A DNA stretch of 64,000 nucleotides from Octopus vulgaris (taxonomy: Eukaryota). The DNA lies in contig OX597824.1 in assembly GCA_951406725.2 (NCBI GenBank), positions 76,756,001 to 76,820,000 of the forward strand, written 5' to 3'. Each line of letters starts with the position of its first letter. Within the stretch, counting starts at the first letter, position 1. A program made the translations under genes and the position numbers. This document shows, piece by piece, positions 12,989-63,695 of the stretch. A model generated the notes under the pieces. That model made no database searches. It was not told where the DNA came from and worked only from the letters and a program-made list of their open reading frames with translations.

Positions 12989-13039
<51 letters not shown>

Positions 13040-13045
<6 letters not shown>

Positions 13046-13229
13046 CCTATTGATCAAATTTTTTTCCTTTCCCTTTTTTTCCTCCCCCCCTTTTTTATCC
13101 CCCCTTTTTTGTCCTCTTTCTTTCCATTTACGATCCCTTTTGATCGAAAACCAAACCCCCTTCTTTTACCCCCAAAAGAAAAGCTCTACCTTGTAATTTT
13201 GTCCTGTCTGTGTGGCTAATAAAGAAACA
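13040..13229 (+). mobile_element. 5'-truncated 3' UTR of the Tx1-like LINE
   Basis: Matches 14155-14360 (ATCCCTATTGATCAA...AAAGCTCTACCTTGTAATTT...GTGGCTAATAAAGAAACA); (TATC)n on both sides. Confidence 0.9.
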
Positions 13230-13270
<41 letters not shown>

Positions 13271-13271
<1 letters not shown>

Positions 13272-14360
13272 GAGTGTCGCGTTGCTCTCAAGCAACTCTG
13301 CCGTCCTGGGTCGACCTTAAGTGACTTCAACACAACCAAAGCATTCTATAGGGGTTTAGTGGAGGGGAGGTACGACGACGAGCTCGGGGCGAACCTGGAC
13401 GTCGACGAGGAGTACCTGACCCGCCTGTTCAGGACGACCTTCGGGCCAGGGCCCATGGACAACTTCCAGAGATCCCTGGCCTGGCAGTGCTACCGAGAAG
13501 CGCTACCCGTTCGGGATAAGCTCTACAGACACGGCTCGAGAAACACGGGGCCGACCTGCCCGAGATGCGGTCAGAGCGACGAAACCGTTCTGCACGCACT
13601 CGTTCAGTGTCCAACAATTTCCGACCTGTGGGCTTATGTCGAACAACTGCTGTCACGTGTGGGACGAGTCGGTTTATCAGCTGAGTCTATCGTCAATATT
13701 GTCACGCCTCCTTCCTTCAAACGGGAAGGAAGAGCTATTTTCATCATCCTTGTGGCTATGGCGAAAGAATGTATCTGGTGGACGCGTCTGAAAGGATTGG
13801 AGACAAACACTTTCCTCTCTGGTCAATCTCTCATCAACTTCTTCAAGTACCACTTGAAAAGGAAAGTGAGAGTAGAGAGGCAAGTTTTGTCTAGCGAATG
13901 TTTTAAAAAAAGATGGGTGAATGTAGCAAGAATGGCACGTATGAATGACGAAGCCACCTTGAGCATAGTCCTATGAACCCAGAAATCGAAAACAGAGAGT
14001 TGCTTATTTGCAAAAAAAAAAAAAAAAAAAAAGAAATATAAAATGTGACTTCATTGACCGAGGTTACCGTGGTCTTTTCCGTAGGCTTTTCTTTCCACGG
14101 GTAAACCTCACCTGTCCTCCCCTTTACACTTCATATTGACATTTCTGTGATAACGATCCCTATTGATCAATTTTTTTTCGTCTCCCCCTTTTTTTTAACC
14201 CCCTTTTTTTGTCCTCTTTCTCTCCTTTTACGATCCCTTTGATCGAAACTCCCCCTTCCTTTTTTTTTTTTTTTTTTTTTTTTTTAAACCTTCAAAAGAA
14301 AAGCTCTACCTTGTAATTTGTTCTATCTGTGTGCAGCCCTGTGTGGCTAATAAAGAAACA
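13271..14360 (+). mobile_element. 5'-truncated Tx1/L1-clade non-LTR retrotransposon (ORF2 C-terminus plus 3' UTR)
   Basis: Uninterrupted reading frame to 13976 with a zf-RVT-type zinc knuckle; 3' UTR ends AATAAAGAAACA, followed directly by (TATC)n. Confidence 0.88.
13272..13976 (+). pseudogene. ORF2 C-terminal fragment, zf-RVT CCHC domain (no true start codon)
   Basis: RSLAWQCYREALPVRDKLYRHG...CPRCGQSDETVLHALVQCPTISDLW...AKECIWWTR. The first ~20 aa of the listed ORF are the upstream 3' UTR copy and TATC repeat. Confidence 0.85.
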
Positions 14361-14396
<36 letters not shown>

Positions 14397-14418
14397 CATC
14401 TATCTGTCTCTCTCTTCT

Positions 14419-14452
<34 letters not shown>

Positions 14453-15328: not shown

Positions 15329-15818
15329 AACTAATTTTGATAAAACAAAAGGTATACAGAGAACCATGAAAGAAATATATAATTTCTTTACTTAACAGCT
15401 GTTTCAAGAAACTGGGAGTCTCGTAATAATCATAATATTCATAATTTACTGATAGCATATGCAAAAAGTCTCAGATATGACATCTGTGAACCGAACAGTC
15501 ACACAGTAATGTTACAATTAGTTTGGTTTCCACATCAAGATGAGGTAAAAACCAAAGTGTATATACATTTTGCATAAGACACATGCCTGCTCGAAGAATT
15601 TAAGGTTTTTCCGCAATATTTCTAGCCCTAAGTGGCTTAATTTTTAATATCTAGCACTGTCTTTCTCCATTTCTAATTTTAGAGTATACATAAACTAACC
15701 TTGCAAAATACAACTGATCCTTACACACAGACACACAGAACAACAGGAATCAAATAGCACACATCGGACTGCAGAACAAACATCAGCGATCTGACTGTCG
15801 GCTGTACTCTTGACAAGA

Positions 15819-16049
15819 AGGCGGCAAGCTGGCAGAAACGTTAGCACGCTGGGCAAAATGCGTAGACGTATTTCGTCTGCCGTTACGTTCTGAGTTCAAA
15901 TTCCGCCGAGGTCAACTTTGCCTTTCATCCTTTCGGGGTCGATAAATTAAGTACCAGTTACGCACTGGAGTCGATGTAATCGACTTAATACCTATGTCTG
16001 TCCTTGTTTGTCCCCTCTATGTTTAGCCCTTGTGGGTAATAAAGAAATA
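15819..16049 (+). mobile_element. SINE group C (Nin/Deu-domain-like core), monomer
   Basis: B-box GAGTTCAAATTCC, core CTTTGCCTTTCATCCTTTCGGGGTCGATAAATTAAGTACC. Perfect 16-bp TSD TGTACTCTTGACAAGA at 15803-15818 and 16050-16065. Confidence 0.92.
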
Positions 16050-16509
16050 TGTACTCTTGACAAGAGATGCCAGTTTTTTACACCTACCAGGCTCGAGTTG
16101 CTGAATTATTTTTCGTTCCTTTGAGAATACTGTCGAACGGAAACTTTTCGTAGATTGGAATTTAAATCCTAATCTCTATAGAAATTAATTGCCTCAGGAA
16201 CAAAATGAATTTGAATAACTTTTAATTTTTACGACTATAGATAACAACTCGGGCTGTAACTTCTAAGCGAGAGTCAAGTGCATGTGAACTATGTCGAGAG
16301 CACGTCTGCTACGAATGATATCTTTTGAGACAGGGCACCTCTAAGATGACCGCCAGTTGCTGAACTGCAACCAAGCTCAATGAAAGAAGCCTGAGTTATT
16401 GATTGCATTTAGATATTTGAAGTCAATGTTGGCAGAAATTAAATTAGCTTCGAAATACAAGTTCACTTATGTGTGTGTACGTATGTATGTGTAATGTGTG
16501 CATACATCA

Positions 16510-31857: not shown

Positions 31858-32487
31858 AAGGCGGCGAGCTGGCAGAAACGTTAGTACGCCGGGCGAAATG
31901 CTTAGCGGTATTTCATCTCCCGTTACGTTCTGAGTTCAAATTCCGCAGAGGTCGACTTTGCTTTTTATCCTTTCGGAATAGATAAATTAAATACCAGTTG
32001 CATGCTGGGGGTCGATGTAATCGACTTAATCTGTTTCTCTGTCCTTCTTTGTCCTCTCTGTATTTAGCCCCTTGTGGGTAGTAAAGAAATAGGTATTTCG
32101 TCTGCCGCTACGTTATCAGTTCAAATTCCAGCTGAGGTCGACTTTGCCTTTCATCCTTTCAGAATCGATGAATAAAGCACCAATTACGCACTGGGGTCGC
32201 TGTCATCGACTTAATCCCTTTGTCTGTTCTTGCTTTTCCCCTCTATGTTTAGCCCTTTGTGGGCAATAAAGAAGAAATAAGAAACTTTAGCACGCCGGGC
32301 GAAATGCTTAGCGGTATTTCGACTGTCTTAACATTCTGAGGTCAAATTTCGCCGAGGTCGACTTTGCCTTTCATCCTTTCAGAGTCGATAAATTAAGTAT
32401 CAGCTGCGTACTGGAGTCGATCTAATCGACTGACCCTCCCCTCCCCCAAAATTTCAAGCCTTGTGCATAGAGTAGAAAAGAATATTA
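31858..32487 (+). mobile_element. SINE group C trimer
   Basis: Three head-to-tail core units; the last ends in the alternative tail CCTTGTGCATAGAGTAGAAAAG. Confidence 0.88.
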
Positions 32488-32519
32488 ATTTCAGTGTAAG
32501 GCGGCGAGCTAGCAGAAAT

Positions 32520-36328: not shown

Positions 36329-36916
36329 ATAATTCTTTCTACTATAGGCACAAGGCCTGAAATTATGGGGAAGGAGCAAGTCAATTATATCGACCCCAGT
36401 ACTCAACTGGTACTTTATTTATATACCCCAAAAGGATGAAAGGCAATGTCGACCTCGGCGGAATTTTGAACTCAGAACGTAGCGGCAGACGAAACACCTA
36501 TTTCTTTACTACCCACATGGGGCTAAACACAGAGAGGACAAACAAGGACAGACAAACGGATTAAGTCGATTGCATCGACCCCAGTGCGTAACTGGTACTT
36601 AATTTATCGACCCCGAAAGGATGAAAGGCAAAGTCGACCTCGGTGGAATTTGAACTCAGAACATAACGGCAGACGAAATACCTATTTCTTTACTACCCAC
36701 AAGGGGCTAAACATAGAGGGGACAAACAAGGACAGACAAACGGATTAAGTCGATTATATCGACCCCAGTGCGTAACTGGTACTTAACTTAATCGACCCCA
36801 AAAGGATGAAAGGCAAAGTCGACCTCGGCGGAATTTGAACTCAGAACATAGCGGCAGACGAAATACCGCTAAGCATTTCGCCCGGTGTGCTAACGATTCT
36901 GCCAGCTCGCCACCTT
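36329..36916 (-). mobile_element. SINE group C trimer
   Basis: Head at 36916; units joined at AAAGAAATAGGT; last unit has the alternative tail. Confidence 0.9.
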
Positions 36917-36930
36917 GTATTGTATGTAAT

Positions 36931-37005
<75 letters not shown>

Positions 37006-38037: not shown

Positions 38038-38642
38038 AAGGCGGCGAGCTGGCAGAAACGTTAGCACGCCGGGCGAAATGCTTAGCGGTATTTCGTCTGC
38101 CGCTACGTTCTGAGTTCAAATTCCGACGCGGTCCACTTTGCCTTTCATCGTTCTGGGTCGATTAAATAAATACCAATTACGCACTGTGTCGATATAATCG
38201 ATTTAATCCGTTTGTCTGTCCTTGTTTGTCCTCTCTGTGTTTAGCCCCTCGTGGGTAGTAAAGAAATAGGTATTTCGTTTGCCGCTACGTTCTGAGTTCA
38301 AATTCCGCTGAGGTCAACATTGCCTTTCATCCTTTCGGGTCCGATTAAATAAGTACCAGTTGAGTACTGGGGTCGATATAATCGACTTAATCCGTTTGTC
38401 TATCCTTGTTTCTCCCCCTCTGTGTGTAGCCACTTGTGGGCAGTAAAGAAATAGAAATAGATATTTCGTCTGCCGTTACGTTCTGAGTTCAAATTCCTCT
38501 GAGGTCGACTTTGCCTTTGATTCTTTGCGGTTCGATTAAATAAGTACCAGTTACGCACTGGGGGCGATCTAATCGACTTTATCCCTTTGTCTGTCATTGT
38601 TCCCTCTATGTTTAGCCTCCTGTGAGCAATAAAGAAAGAAAT
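38038..38642 (+). mobile_element. SINE group C trimer
   Basis: Units start TATTTCGT at ~38089, 38271 and 38462. Confidence 0.9.
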
Positions 38643-55867: not shown

Positions 55868-56015
55868 GTTTCTTTATTCGCCACACAGGGCTGCACACAG
55901 ATGGGACAAGTTACAAGGTAGAGCTTTTCTTTTGGGGGATGAAAGAAACAAAAAACAAAAGAAACAAAAAAAAAGGGGTGGCGTAGGTTTTCGATCAAGA
56001 GGGATCGTAAAAGGG
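55867..56015 (-). mobile_element. Third 3' UTR copy of the Tx1-like LINE
   Basis: Reverse complement of AAAGAAAAGCTCTACCTTGTAA...GCAGCCCTGTGTGGC..AATAAAGAAAC; abuts (GATA)n. Confidence 0.88.
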
Positions 56016-56501
56016 AAGAAAAGAACTCTTTGTCTTTCATCGTGGAGCACACAAACACATGGCTTATTTCTGTTTAATTAATTATGACTCTTGATGCCGT
56101 AACATAATAGGCCGCCGATGACACTCTAACCAGTTGTAATCTAACCAATCTTCAGTATTTGTTCCAGGGATTTGTTGATGTACACGGTAAAGCTTGTATT
56201 TTACTATGTACATCTGGAATGAATATCGTTCTATATTCAAATACTATCCACCAGTAGAATTCGCGAGATTATCATATGTTTACCAGTAGCACAGTCAGTA
56301 TTAATAAGTCGCCCAGATATGTTATTGATTGAGCAAATGTATCGTCTAGGCGATACATATAATGAATGTTGTATATGGTACAACTGCAACTCGTGGATGT
56401 TTATCCAGCGAGCTGGCAGGAGCCTTTGAATGCCAGGGAAAATGTGTGTGTGTGTGTGTGTGTGTCTGTATATGTGTGTGTGTGTGTGTGTATGTGTGCG
56501 A

Positions 56502-56782: not shown

Positions 56783-57230
56783 TGTGACGTATATTTGCCA
56801 TATAAATATAGCTAACCCCTAAGTGTGGATGCTACTGTAGTTTGTAGCCCCAGGAGGACACCTCCTCCAGCTGGCTATAGACACACTTTCTGTGCCCTAT
56901 CAGTATTTGCAAAGGGAAGCCATCCTTCCCGTCTTCAGCATGTGATACACACGGACTCGAGTTTCTGGGTATTGACCCGCCGTGAAGGGAACCTACTTTT
57001 CATCGACAACTGTGATTGTCACACGCCGATGACGGGTCAATTACTCAGAAACTCGAGTCCGTGTGTATCATATGCTGAAGACGGGAAGGATGGCTTCCCT
57101 TTGCAAATACTGATAGGGCACAGAAAGCGTGTCTATAGCCAGCTGGAGGAGGCGTCCTCCTGGGGCTACAAACTACAGTAGCATCCACCCTTAGGGGGTA
57201 GCCATATTTAAATGGCAAATATACGTCACA
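56783..57230. mobile_element. Foldback element with ~200-bp arms and TGT...ACA termini
   Basis: 56783-~56983 is the reverse complement of ~57030-57230 with few mismatches; flanks ATAT/ATGT. Confidence 0.9.
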
Positions 57231-59065: not shown

Positions 59066-59137
59066 TCCTCGGCAGTATAGTGGTAAGTATCCTCGCCTGT
59101 CACGCGGGAGACCGGGGTTCGTTTCCCCGCCGGGGAG
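59066..59137 (+). tRNA. tRNA-Asp(GTC), variant or young pseudogene
   Basis: 72 nt; acceptor TCCTCGG/CCGGGGA, anticodon arm CTCGC-CTGTCAC-GCGGG, T arm CGGGG-TTCGTTT-CCCCG; T4 terminator at 59146-59149. C at position 8 and T at 58 are non-canonical. Confidence 0.88.
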
Positions 59138-62325: not shown

Positions 62326-62813
62326 AAAAAATAAAAGCTCCTTCCTGCAGGAGCAATAGCAGAATGGAAATAACAAGAAGTCATCTTTAACTTCATTGTG
62401 TTCCGAAAGATATTCATTAACTTTAATGAAATACTAACGAGACAAAAAAAATTTGGAAATCACATGACAAAAAAAATAATGAATGACTTCGTTTAAGTGA
62501 TGCGTTAACTTAATGAAATTGCTTTCCTATTTTTGCTTAATGTAAGTAATGTATTATAAATCATTACCACAAATGATTGATTAGCTACCATGTGTCAACA
62601 CGCTAATTGTGCAGATATCAAATCGCCCCAGTAAAAGACAAGGAAAAAAAAAAAACAGAAAAAGCACAAATGTGAACGGAAACTAAGTCATTCTGTTCAC
62701 GTTTAAAGGAGGAAATGCATACTTTTACTTTGATGAGCAGAAATGTAAAAAAAATAAAGAAACGATTCCGAGAATGGAGCGTCGAGAACTTTGTAACGCC
62801 AAAATTAATATAA

Positions 62814-63220
62814 GATGAGCTGGCAGAAACGTTAGCGAAACGGTCGAAATGCTTAGCGATATTTCGTCTGCCGCTAGGTTCTGAGTTCGAATTCCGCCGA
62901 GGTCGACTTTACCTTTATCCTTTCGGGGTCGATTAAATAAGTACCAGTTACGCACTGGGGTCGATGTAATCGACTTAATCCGTTTGTCTGTCCTTGTTTG
63001 TCCCCTCTATGTTTAGCCCCTTGTGGATAATAAAGAAATAGATATTTCGTGTGCCGCTACGTTCTGAGTTCGAATTCCGCCGAGGTCGACTTTACCTTTC
63101 ATCCTTTCGGGGTCGATTAAATAAGTACCAGTTACGCACTGGGGTCGATGTAATCGACTTAATCCGTTTGTCTGTCCTTGTTTGTCCCCTCTGTGTTTAG
63201 CCCCTTGTGGGCAATAAAAA
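62814..63220 (+). mobile_element. SINE group C dimer
   Basis: Two ~183-bp units; TSD AAAATTAATATAA at 62801-62813 and 63221-63233. Confidence 0.9.
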
Positions 63221-63695
63221 AAAATTAATATAATAGTACAGTACATGAGGAAAATAATGTTAATCTAAATATATAGGTCGAATTCTCACATAGCTGAATG
63301 GATGCGAAAAGAATGAGTTTGAATACTCATCCTATATCTTACAGTTTCGCTCTACCCCAAACGATGAGACGACCACAAAACGCAAACATATTAATATATG
63401 GAGGGAAAATAACTCTGATATAAATCAAATGTCGCTCCGAAGACAACAGTTAATATAAAATTATATTCTCCAAATCAAAAATAGACAAAAATAAATAAAA
63501 AAGAAAAAATTGATGTTACGTTGGGTAACACTGGCCTAGATAGGTTGCTTGAAATAAAGTCGGAATAATCATGGTAGGAACGCCTTTGTCTCTTGATATG
63601 CTTAGTCAGAGCAGATGTAGAGGTAAACAGCAGTAAGGATAAAGGCCACATTGAAATAATGTAGCCTGTATTGTGCTGTATTATTTCATTGAAAA

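Follow-up and report, generated by a model that had tools for sequence, protein, structure and literature searches.

A likely tail partnership between an abundant octopus SINE and a clan of Tx1-group LINEs

In the stretch of Octopus vulgaris DNA that we analyzed (64,000 nucleotides, hereafter the window), a complete SINE insertion (15819-16049, a 231-nt unit; Table 1) ends in much the same sequence as a fragment of a LINE. Which enzyme copies this SINE, and does it recognize the shared tail? The initial annotation proposed that a Tx1-like LINE mobilizes the SINE with stringent recognition of its tail, and that SINE copies with another tail record a switch of partner.

The shared 3' tail is real. 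By BLASTN, the SINE end (16002-16047, plus strand) and the LINE end (55918-55869, minus strand; annotated one base away, at 55919) are 80% identical (40/50 columns, E = 6.6e-6). The similarity is significant against shuffled sequence: with or without the last 10 nt (terminal AATAAAGAAA), none of 1,000 dinucleotide shuffles scored as high. When we scored the 493 AATAAA sites of 20 arbitrary 10-kb stretches (200 kb in total), seven reached the score of the SINE/LINE pair, and these were six copies of the SINE and one end of the LINE family that we call family A. The SINE units at 38220 and 63176 (annotated as 63175) also resemble the LINE end, at 74% and 78% identity; the unit at 38220 is internal in a three-unit array and has the hexamer AGTAAA. 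As annotated, the two elements stop at the same point, within a few bases of AATAAAGAAA: the SINE ends in ...GAAATA and is followed by its 16-bp duplication, and the LINE (family A) ends in ...GAAAC and is followed by (CTAT)n. Poly(A) was absent from every copy of the SINE or of the Tx1 clan that we read.

Table 1. Coordinates of the SINE and LINE features in the window
Feature	Position	Strand	Evidence or remark
Older family A 3' fragment, in the same (CTAT)n tract as the copy at 13272..14359 and head to tail with it	13043..13228	+	
5'-truncated young family A copy: ORF2 C-terminus with zf-RVT (to 13976) and 3' UTR	13272..14359	+	Pfam
Left target-site duplication, 16 bp	15803..15818	+	identical to 16050-16065
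SINE head, tRNA-like; A-box-like 15830-15840, B-box-like 15894-15903	15819..15910	+	sequence, motif scan
Junction sites within the SINE head: J2 ~15835, J1 ~15868	15819..15910	+	
SINE body, common to copies of all tail types	15911..15985	+	
T tail (Tx1-type): pyrimidine-rich stretch, hairpin 16026-16037, AATAAA 16038-16043, end GAAATA, no poly(A)	15986..16049	+	
Right target-site duplication	16050..16065	+	identical to 15803-15818
Composite SINE: two T units joined at J1, followed by an O2-tailed unit joined at J2	31858..32490	+	
Composite SINE: head, two T-tailed units, final unit with the older O2 tail	36330..36916	-	
SINE, three body+T-tail units; internal tails AGTAAA, last tail AATAAA	38038..38637	+	
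Non-coding 3' fragment, older subfamily of Tx1 family A	55868..56021	-	82% to family A
SINE, two body+T-tail units (J1 junction); 13-bp duplication 62801-62813 / 63221-63233	62818..63225	+	

The LINE fragment near 55.9 kb has no ORF and is followed by (CTAT)n; it has a hairpin at 55879-55892, whose outer pair is broken in this copy. We can tie it to a Tx1 ORF because the young copy at 13272-14359 carries the C-terminus of ORF2. That copy is 98.6% identical to a full-length locus (L022) and has (CTAT)n on either side. The ORF2 of family A (1,145 aa, with the Pfam domains Exo_endo_phos, RVT_1, and zf-RVT) scores 333 bits against Xenopus Tx1 ORF2 (YTX2_XENLA) versus 184.5 bits against human L1 ORF2 (phmmer), and all 10 family A loci that we fetched contain a 1,149-codon ORF2 frame. 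Family A also has the domain organization of the Tx1 clade: two ORFs, with an APE endonuclease, a reverse transcriptase, and a C-terminal zinc-binding motif in ORF2. All 150 scored matches were identical over 214 aa, among 33,427 candidates in the 2.8 Gb genome. Judging by these sequences, family A is a young Tx1-group element that is closer to Xenopus Tx1 than to L1.

Family A inserts into (CTAT)n: by eye, 17 of 20 readable 5' junctions lie in this repeat, with varied truncation points, and 19 of 30 3' flanks pass a strict test for the repeat. Genome-wide, the family A tail plus the repeat has 4,786 matches, and a slightly longer exact tail has 6,370. Copies of this very young, high-copy family are stacked head to tail in their (CTAT)n target (window 12989-14420; loci L021-L030 and L091-L120).

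The SINE is short, non-coding, and interspersed, with target duplications and with head motifs that we take to be A and B boxes, as is typical of tRNA-derived SINEs. Neither ARAGORN nor Rfam assigned a tRNA or a family to its head. (ARAGORN does call a tRNA-Asp(GTC) gene elsewhere in the window, at 59066-59137.) Octopus SINEs were reportedly described as OR1 and OR2 by Ohshima and Okada in 1994. The exact SINE-type tail has 18,894 matches in the genome, and 29 of the 30 that we read are SINEs; the remaining one led us to the ORF1-only elements described below. Unselected DNA (264 kb) contained 13 elements that end in this tail (T-ended) and 24 that end in older tails (O-ended), three of which have internal T tails. 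Extrapolating from these 264 kb gives about 10^5 T-ended copies. The tail units number roughly 200,000. Target duplications flank 65 of 91 T-ended copies, as compared to 4 of 271 controls; their median length is 16 bp, and the sites are unique. In the unselected DNA, 4 of 13 terminal copies end with AGTAAA, so the hexamer AATAAA is not strictly needed. The association of AGTAAA with internal tails and AATAAA with ends (9/13 vs. 2/11, p = 0.019, Fisher exact test) is also computed from unselected DNA, as the test is biased on loci that were selected by pattern.

The tail is not limited to family A. It is present in at least seven autonomous Tx1 families (A, B, C, D, E, F, and G) and in several ORF1-only elements. 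Using the ORF1 of an ORF1-only element as a query, we fetched 60 loci and obtained families B, C, D, E, G, and H; family F surfaced among the matches of the exact 24-nt tail end. The ORF2s of the other families are about 50-62% identical to that of family A. In a midpoint-rooted tree of 30 reverse transcriptases (12 from this genome and 18 unnamed or barely named homologs, with neither an L1 row nor P0269 (YTX2_XENLA) included), B groups with D, G, and H (98/94), E groups with C (100/100), these two groups are joined (100/99), and A lies outside. A scan of metagenome contigs for the tails of distant relatives found none.

The ORF1-only elements have a 391-codon frame with a CCHC knuckle that is 28% identical to the ORF1 of family A, and in 24 of 30 loci there was no ORF2 match within 1.5 kb downstream. 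This organization is that of HAL1 (half-L1), which was reportedly described by Bao and Jurka in 2010. HAL1 elements are also non-autonomous ORF1-only derivatives of an L1-group LINE, as outlined in the available part of PMC5753468; the octopus elements differ in being derived from Tx1, in lacking poly(A), and in having the hairpin tail of the clan. There are further ORF1-only families in the clan, some as tandem arrays.

Several families of the clan target repeats: (CTAT)n for A, (TC)n for B, and the head of another SINE for G. Full-length copies of family B have (TC)n on both flanks (L155-L165, L168, L172, L174, and L186-L192). A single site, in the head of a different abundant SINE, is the target of family G and ORF1-only passengers (L183/L365, L177, L181, L182, L203, L205, L207, and L210); in these elements, the hairpin is about 10 nt more distant from AATAAA. 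Loci L166, L167, L170, and L173 are tandem arrays of ~1.7-kb ORF1-only elements, and contig C5 contains a run of at least 15 ORF1-only-type ends at about 1.7-kb spacing. In most of the 30 best copies of family E (L215-L244), AATAAT replaces AATAAA; most of these 30 continue into the same ~300-nt ORF1-like piece, which could be a fused extension or a fixed target. No RNA record was listed as containing a stretch of family E that we looked up. Family D (L371-L400) has its hairpin two bases upstream, rebuilt with A/T pairs (GATT/AATC), and the downstream sequence is the same in many copies, which suggests another fixed target. Some of these downstream regions resemble a ~180-nt sequence of the window that adjoins an inverted copy of itself, between two copies of another SINE (56816-57181). 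Two families related to D form ~5.3-kb tandem arrays.

To ask which family's tail is closest to that of the SINE, we scored tails against the SINE tail, which scores 112 against itself. Families E (45-55), F (45-51), and G (53) were followed by B (30-44), A (32-41), C (29-37), and D (25-34), while the tails of ORF1-only elements ranged from 28 to 58. (This comparison left out family H and the two D-related families, which are 88% and 79% identical to D, and the row with the top score (98) was dropped, as it turned out to be the tail of a SINE behind a LINE.) In the 5' half of the SINE tail, 25 of 26 nt agree with family G; the 3' half, which contains the hairpin, is best matched by E, F, and C. 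None of the sampled autonomous families (A-G) fits both halves. The exact 24-nt end has 320 matches in the genome; the 30 that we read were 16 SINEs, 11 C, E, F, or N2 elements, and three that were too short to assign. Where C, F, or N2 copies had a visible 5' end, 4 of 9 had 13-23-bp duplications at unique sites. Judging by this small sample, the E/F/C branch may have the insertion signature of the SINE, which is also at unique sites and has duplications with a median of 16 bp. SINE copies also end in GAAATA, as do families B, C, E, and F, whereas family A ends in GAAAC. A point against the E/F/C branch is that it looks low in copy number (1,318 candidates for E) for a SINE of about 10^5 copies. 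The tails of the clan LINEs are far more diverse than the SINE tails (5% divergence), which implies that the tail passed from LINE to SINE.

The initial annotation had suggested folding both tails in search of a common stem-loop, and there is one. Of 23 representative tails, 19 fold into a hairpin of four pairs with a 4-6-nt loop, whose last base directly precedes AATAAA; this occurs in 7% of shuffles, and at other offsets in 0-8 of the 23 tails. The outer pair varies (G-T, A-T, G-C, T-A, or C-G), so there are compensatory changes. The four misses are two tails of family B (with a bulged stem), one of D (with the stem shifted by two), and the copy at 55.9 kb. In a MAFFT alignment of 21 tails, which is not fully in register and omits D and one old A, 85.7% of cells pair, and the covariation score was reached by 3 of 500 shuffles; RNAalifold gives a 3-bp version of the hairpin. 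Because the rows are related, neither 19/23 nor 3/500 should be read as an independent probability. The hairpin is weak (-3 to -7 kcal/mol), and 144 of 150 SINE units keep all four pairs, in a sample that is biased by the search patterns. In L2-clade LINEs, a 3' stem-loop is bound by ORF2 and is required for retrotransposition (PMC4176376, in the part available to us). By analogy, the stem-loop of the Tx1 clan may act in the same way.

SINE copies are often arranged in arrays, in which a T tail is followed by a unit that begins at position 50 (J1, 105 junctions) or at position 17 (J2, 38 junctions, from a pool that was enriched for J2). J2 junctions have 2,605 exact matches in the genome, and all 30 that we read join SINE to SINE; in the fetched loci, none of 100 junctions has the tail of a LINE at J1 or J2. 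Two loci show independent nested insertions: in L287, a full SINE sits at the J1 site of an older copy and is flanked by a 12-bp duplication, and L359 has a 5'-truncated SINE copy at J2. Units with the older tail O2, which keep the J1 sequence, lie behind a T unit more often than units with the older tail O1 do (18/47 vs. 1/17, p = 0.013), although age could be the cause instead. We also considered that the upstream units of arrays might be younger insertions, but this failed: T-T pairs differ by a mean of -0.36 points (n = 80), which fits arrays that are copied whole as well as repeated self-insertion. Among 15 ends that continue with TAGG, the G or GG was absent from the target in three, so in these the RNA extended into the following unit; another 11 have a target that starts with GGT, and one is ambiguous.

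As annotated, further copies of the SINE have another type of tail (...CCTTGTGCCTATAGTAGAAAG), and the age comparison that had been suggested gives a clear difference. The bodies of T-tailed units diverge from the consensus by 5.3% (n = 266; 5.2% in 23 unselected units), as compared to 14% for units with O1 or O2 tails (n = 17 and 33). The T-tailed bodies are younger, which supports a tail switch. O2 units that lie behind a T unit are intermediate, at 8.6% (n = 27), and the best 27 copies of family E, which are biased towards young copies, diverge by 3.6%. So the T tail did replace older tails, but we do not find that the change involved another clade of LINEs. A profile search of 1.94 Mb gave no LINE with an O1 or O2 tail among the top 22 non-SINE hits for each, and the O1 and O2 consensuses both contain a hairpin with the same CTTGT loop as the T tail; the switch may therefore lie within the Tx1 clan. 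Whole-tail similarity between O and T is not significant. One ORF1-only tail matched O1 at z = 3.0 (2/200 shuffles), and the other 7 of 8 comparisons were not significant, so a common origin of the O and T tails is no more than a lead. O-tailed copies (window 36330-36960; L141, L191, L278, and L288) often have (ATT)n on one or both sides, which is a hint to their partner. Locus L123 (positions 1-60) joins a SINE head that ends at J1 to the 5' end of an ORF1-only element, and the rest of the SINE is absent downstream; this is possibly the product of a template switch like those by which a SINE could acquire the tail of a LINE.

We propose that the SINE is copied by Tx1 enzymes that read its tail, most likely by a member of the E/F/C branch that is not site-specific, and not by the (CTAT)n family of the window; from the sequence comparisons, we think that this is fairly likely to be correct. 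A partner from the E/F/C branch is favored because the SINE has ~16-bp duplications at unique sites, as the few readable copies of this branch suggest for it too, and because this branch best matches the hairpin half of its tail. Recognition of the tail would be stringent. This agrees with the annotated proposal insofar as the tail comes from Tx1-group LINEs and has a conserved hairpin, but the LINE that prompted the proposal does not fit. For family A to be the partner, it would have to lose its target specificity on SINE RNA. Its youth and great abundance, its significant tail match (z = 4.3-7.5), and the SINEs that make up 18 of the 23 distinct (CTAT)n-flanked ends that we read (the other 5 are family A) would suit such a role. 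However, family A lies in (CTAT)n on both sides, while a (CTAT)n flank was found for none of 78 SINE copies that were not picked for the repeat, so the two do not share an insertion signature. A looser SINE tail followed by (CTAT)3 has 100 matches genome-wide, double counts included, against the 18,894 matches of the narrower tail pattern; this is at most 0.5% and is near the background of 0.2-0.3%. Given also the different end and a tail score below those of E, F, and G, we consider family A very improbable as the partner.

A Tx1 element that targets SINE heads (family G, or a relative in the D/G/H branch) might be the main mobilizer if its specificity is loose on SINE RNA. The match of the G tail to the 5' half of the SINE tail points this way, as do the numerous J2 junctions, which occupy a comparable position in the head of the present SINE, and 316 SINE-type ends that lie exactly at the landing site of family G, where about 6 would be expected at random or 26-93 from microhomology. 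Family G may indeed carry a small share of SINE copies, as these 316 ends suggest, but they are well below 1% of the tail units. The spacing between the hairpin and AATAAA differs in family G, as does the end, and the J2 junctions that we read contain no LINE tails, so we consider family G unlikely to be the main mobilizer. A somewhat less likely explanation is that the hairpin and AATAAA, which is the poly(A) signal, form a 3'-end-formation signal that was captured passively, and that the SINE is copied in a relaxed way or by an RTE, CR1, or Dong-R4 element. The older tails give duplications of similar length (10 of 28 copies, as compared to 3 of 83 controls), which would fit. But cleavage usually occurs 10-30 nt after a poly(A) signal, and the SINE and LINE copies have no poly(A) and end closer than this, 4-8 nt past the hexamer. 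Such a signal would also be useless to a Pol III SINE, yet nearly all of the units in our (biased) sample keep the four pairs of the hairpin. Although other LINE clades are abundant and active in octopus (Table 1 of PMC13282606, which was available in part), 159 of 203 non-SINE hits of the tail profile in 1.94 Mb lie behind clan sequence, and none of the other 44 lies behind a recognizable non-Tx1 LINE (by eye, in a pool that is rich in Tx1 loci).

If copying by tail-reading Tx1 enzymes of the E/F/C branch is correct, then an older SINE probably took its tail from a Tx1 RNA by template switching. ORF2 would bind the hairpin, reverse transcription would begin 4-8 nt after AATAAA, and a few RNA bases beyond the tail would pair with the nicked target. 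Transcripts of the SINE and the LINEs might continue beyond the tail into AGGUAUUU or AAGAAACG, and read-through bases from the next unit of an array would favor the J1 and J2 sites of the SINE and build tandem arrays. More broadly, an L1-group lineage of animals might select its RNA by a 4-bp hairpin beside AATAAA instead of by poly(A), and keep this handle as its endonuclease moves from one target to another, be it (CTAT)n, (TC)n, a SINE head, or no specific site. It would serve a SINE of ~10^5 copies, in which read-through bases direct new copies to the SINE's own head; a single array could then carry two tail types, and more than one Tx1 branch could be used. We put forward this wider picture tentatively, as one that may well be wrong in some part.

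Partnerships of this kind are known from other LINEs. Eel UnaSINE/UnaL2 and zebrafish ZfL2-1/ZfL2-2 likewise have a short common 3' sequence with a stem-loop near the end, which related LINEs share; those partners belong to the L2 clade and have short end repeats, whereas the octopus LINEs are of the Tx1 group, with a 4-bp hairpin that abuts AATAAA and with recognition that is predicted (PMC4176376, from the accessible portion). L1-group LINEs and SINEs with a common 3' end are described in the accessible portions of PMC3472496 and PMC3747384, namely ZmSINE2/3 with LINE1-1_ZM and SINEX-3_CR with L1-1_CR, and the monocot ZmSINE pair has a hairpin with compensatory changes, as in the octopus clan. 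Unlike octopus, those hosts are plants and a green alga. Among the 58 SINE/LINE pairs tabulated in Ohshima 2013 (PMC3747384), there are only three L1-clade cases (maize/sorghum and Chlamydomonas) and, in the part available, no Tx1 or animal L1-group partner. For bivalve SINEs, the partners named in the part of PMC11481361 at hand are CR1-Zenon, CR1, L2, and Nimb. Tail exchange is a known habit of SINEs (PMC4824008 and PMC5786205, from excerpts).

Tx1-clade LINEs also mobilize the crocodilian SINEU, which is assigned to Tx1-Mar (Kojima 2015, PMC4494074, available in part). SINEU ends in poly(A), has no LINE with the same 3' end, and is linked to Tx1-Mar by a common target; in octopus, the link is a common tail without poly(A), and the targets of the site-specific families are mostly not shared with the SINE. 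Targets described there include (TC)n for Kibi, (TTC)n for Koshi, and (TTCC)n/(TTTC)n for crocodilian elements, besides that of Tx1-Mar. Octopus family B is in (TC)n, as Kibi is, A is in a tetranucleotide repeat, and G is in another mobile element; (CTAT)n is not among the targets named for known Tx1 families in the available text. Unlike the microsatellite- or transposon-targeting Tx1 families that we compared, the octopus clan has several targets that coexist under one tail. In the accessible sections of the 2026 annotation of O. vulgaris (PMC13282606), SINEs make up 11.6% of the genome and 13 L1-Tx1 families are recently active, with no SINE partner named. We found no tail-sharing Tx1/SINE pair in the literature that we searched, which did not extend to most subscription journals, Repbase, Dfam, and some supplements.

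Overall, we think it likely that this SINE has a stringent-looking tail partnership with a clan of Tx1-group LINEs, with a hairpin-AATAAAGAAATA tail that is common to both. Whether the ancestral state of the L1 group was stringent (tail-reading) or relaxed (poly(A)) has been an open question that rests on three plant and algal cases (PMC3472496, from the part available). This question becomes directly testable with an animal Tx1 clan that combines a covarying hairpin with numerous intact young ORF2s, ORF1-only passengers, and a SINE of high copy number. In natural pairs from the clan, the recognition of RNA could also be studied apart from the choice of target, and the clan is the likely engine for one big SINE expansion of octopus genomes.
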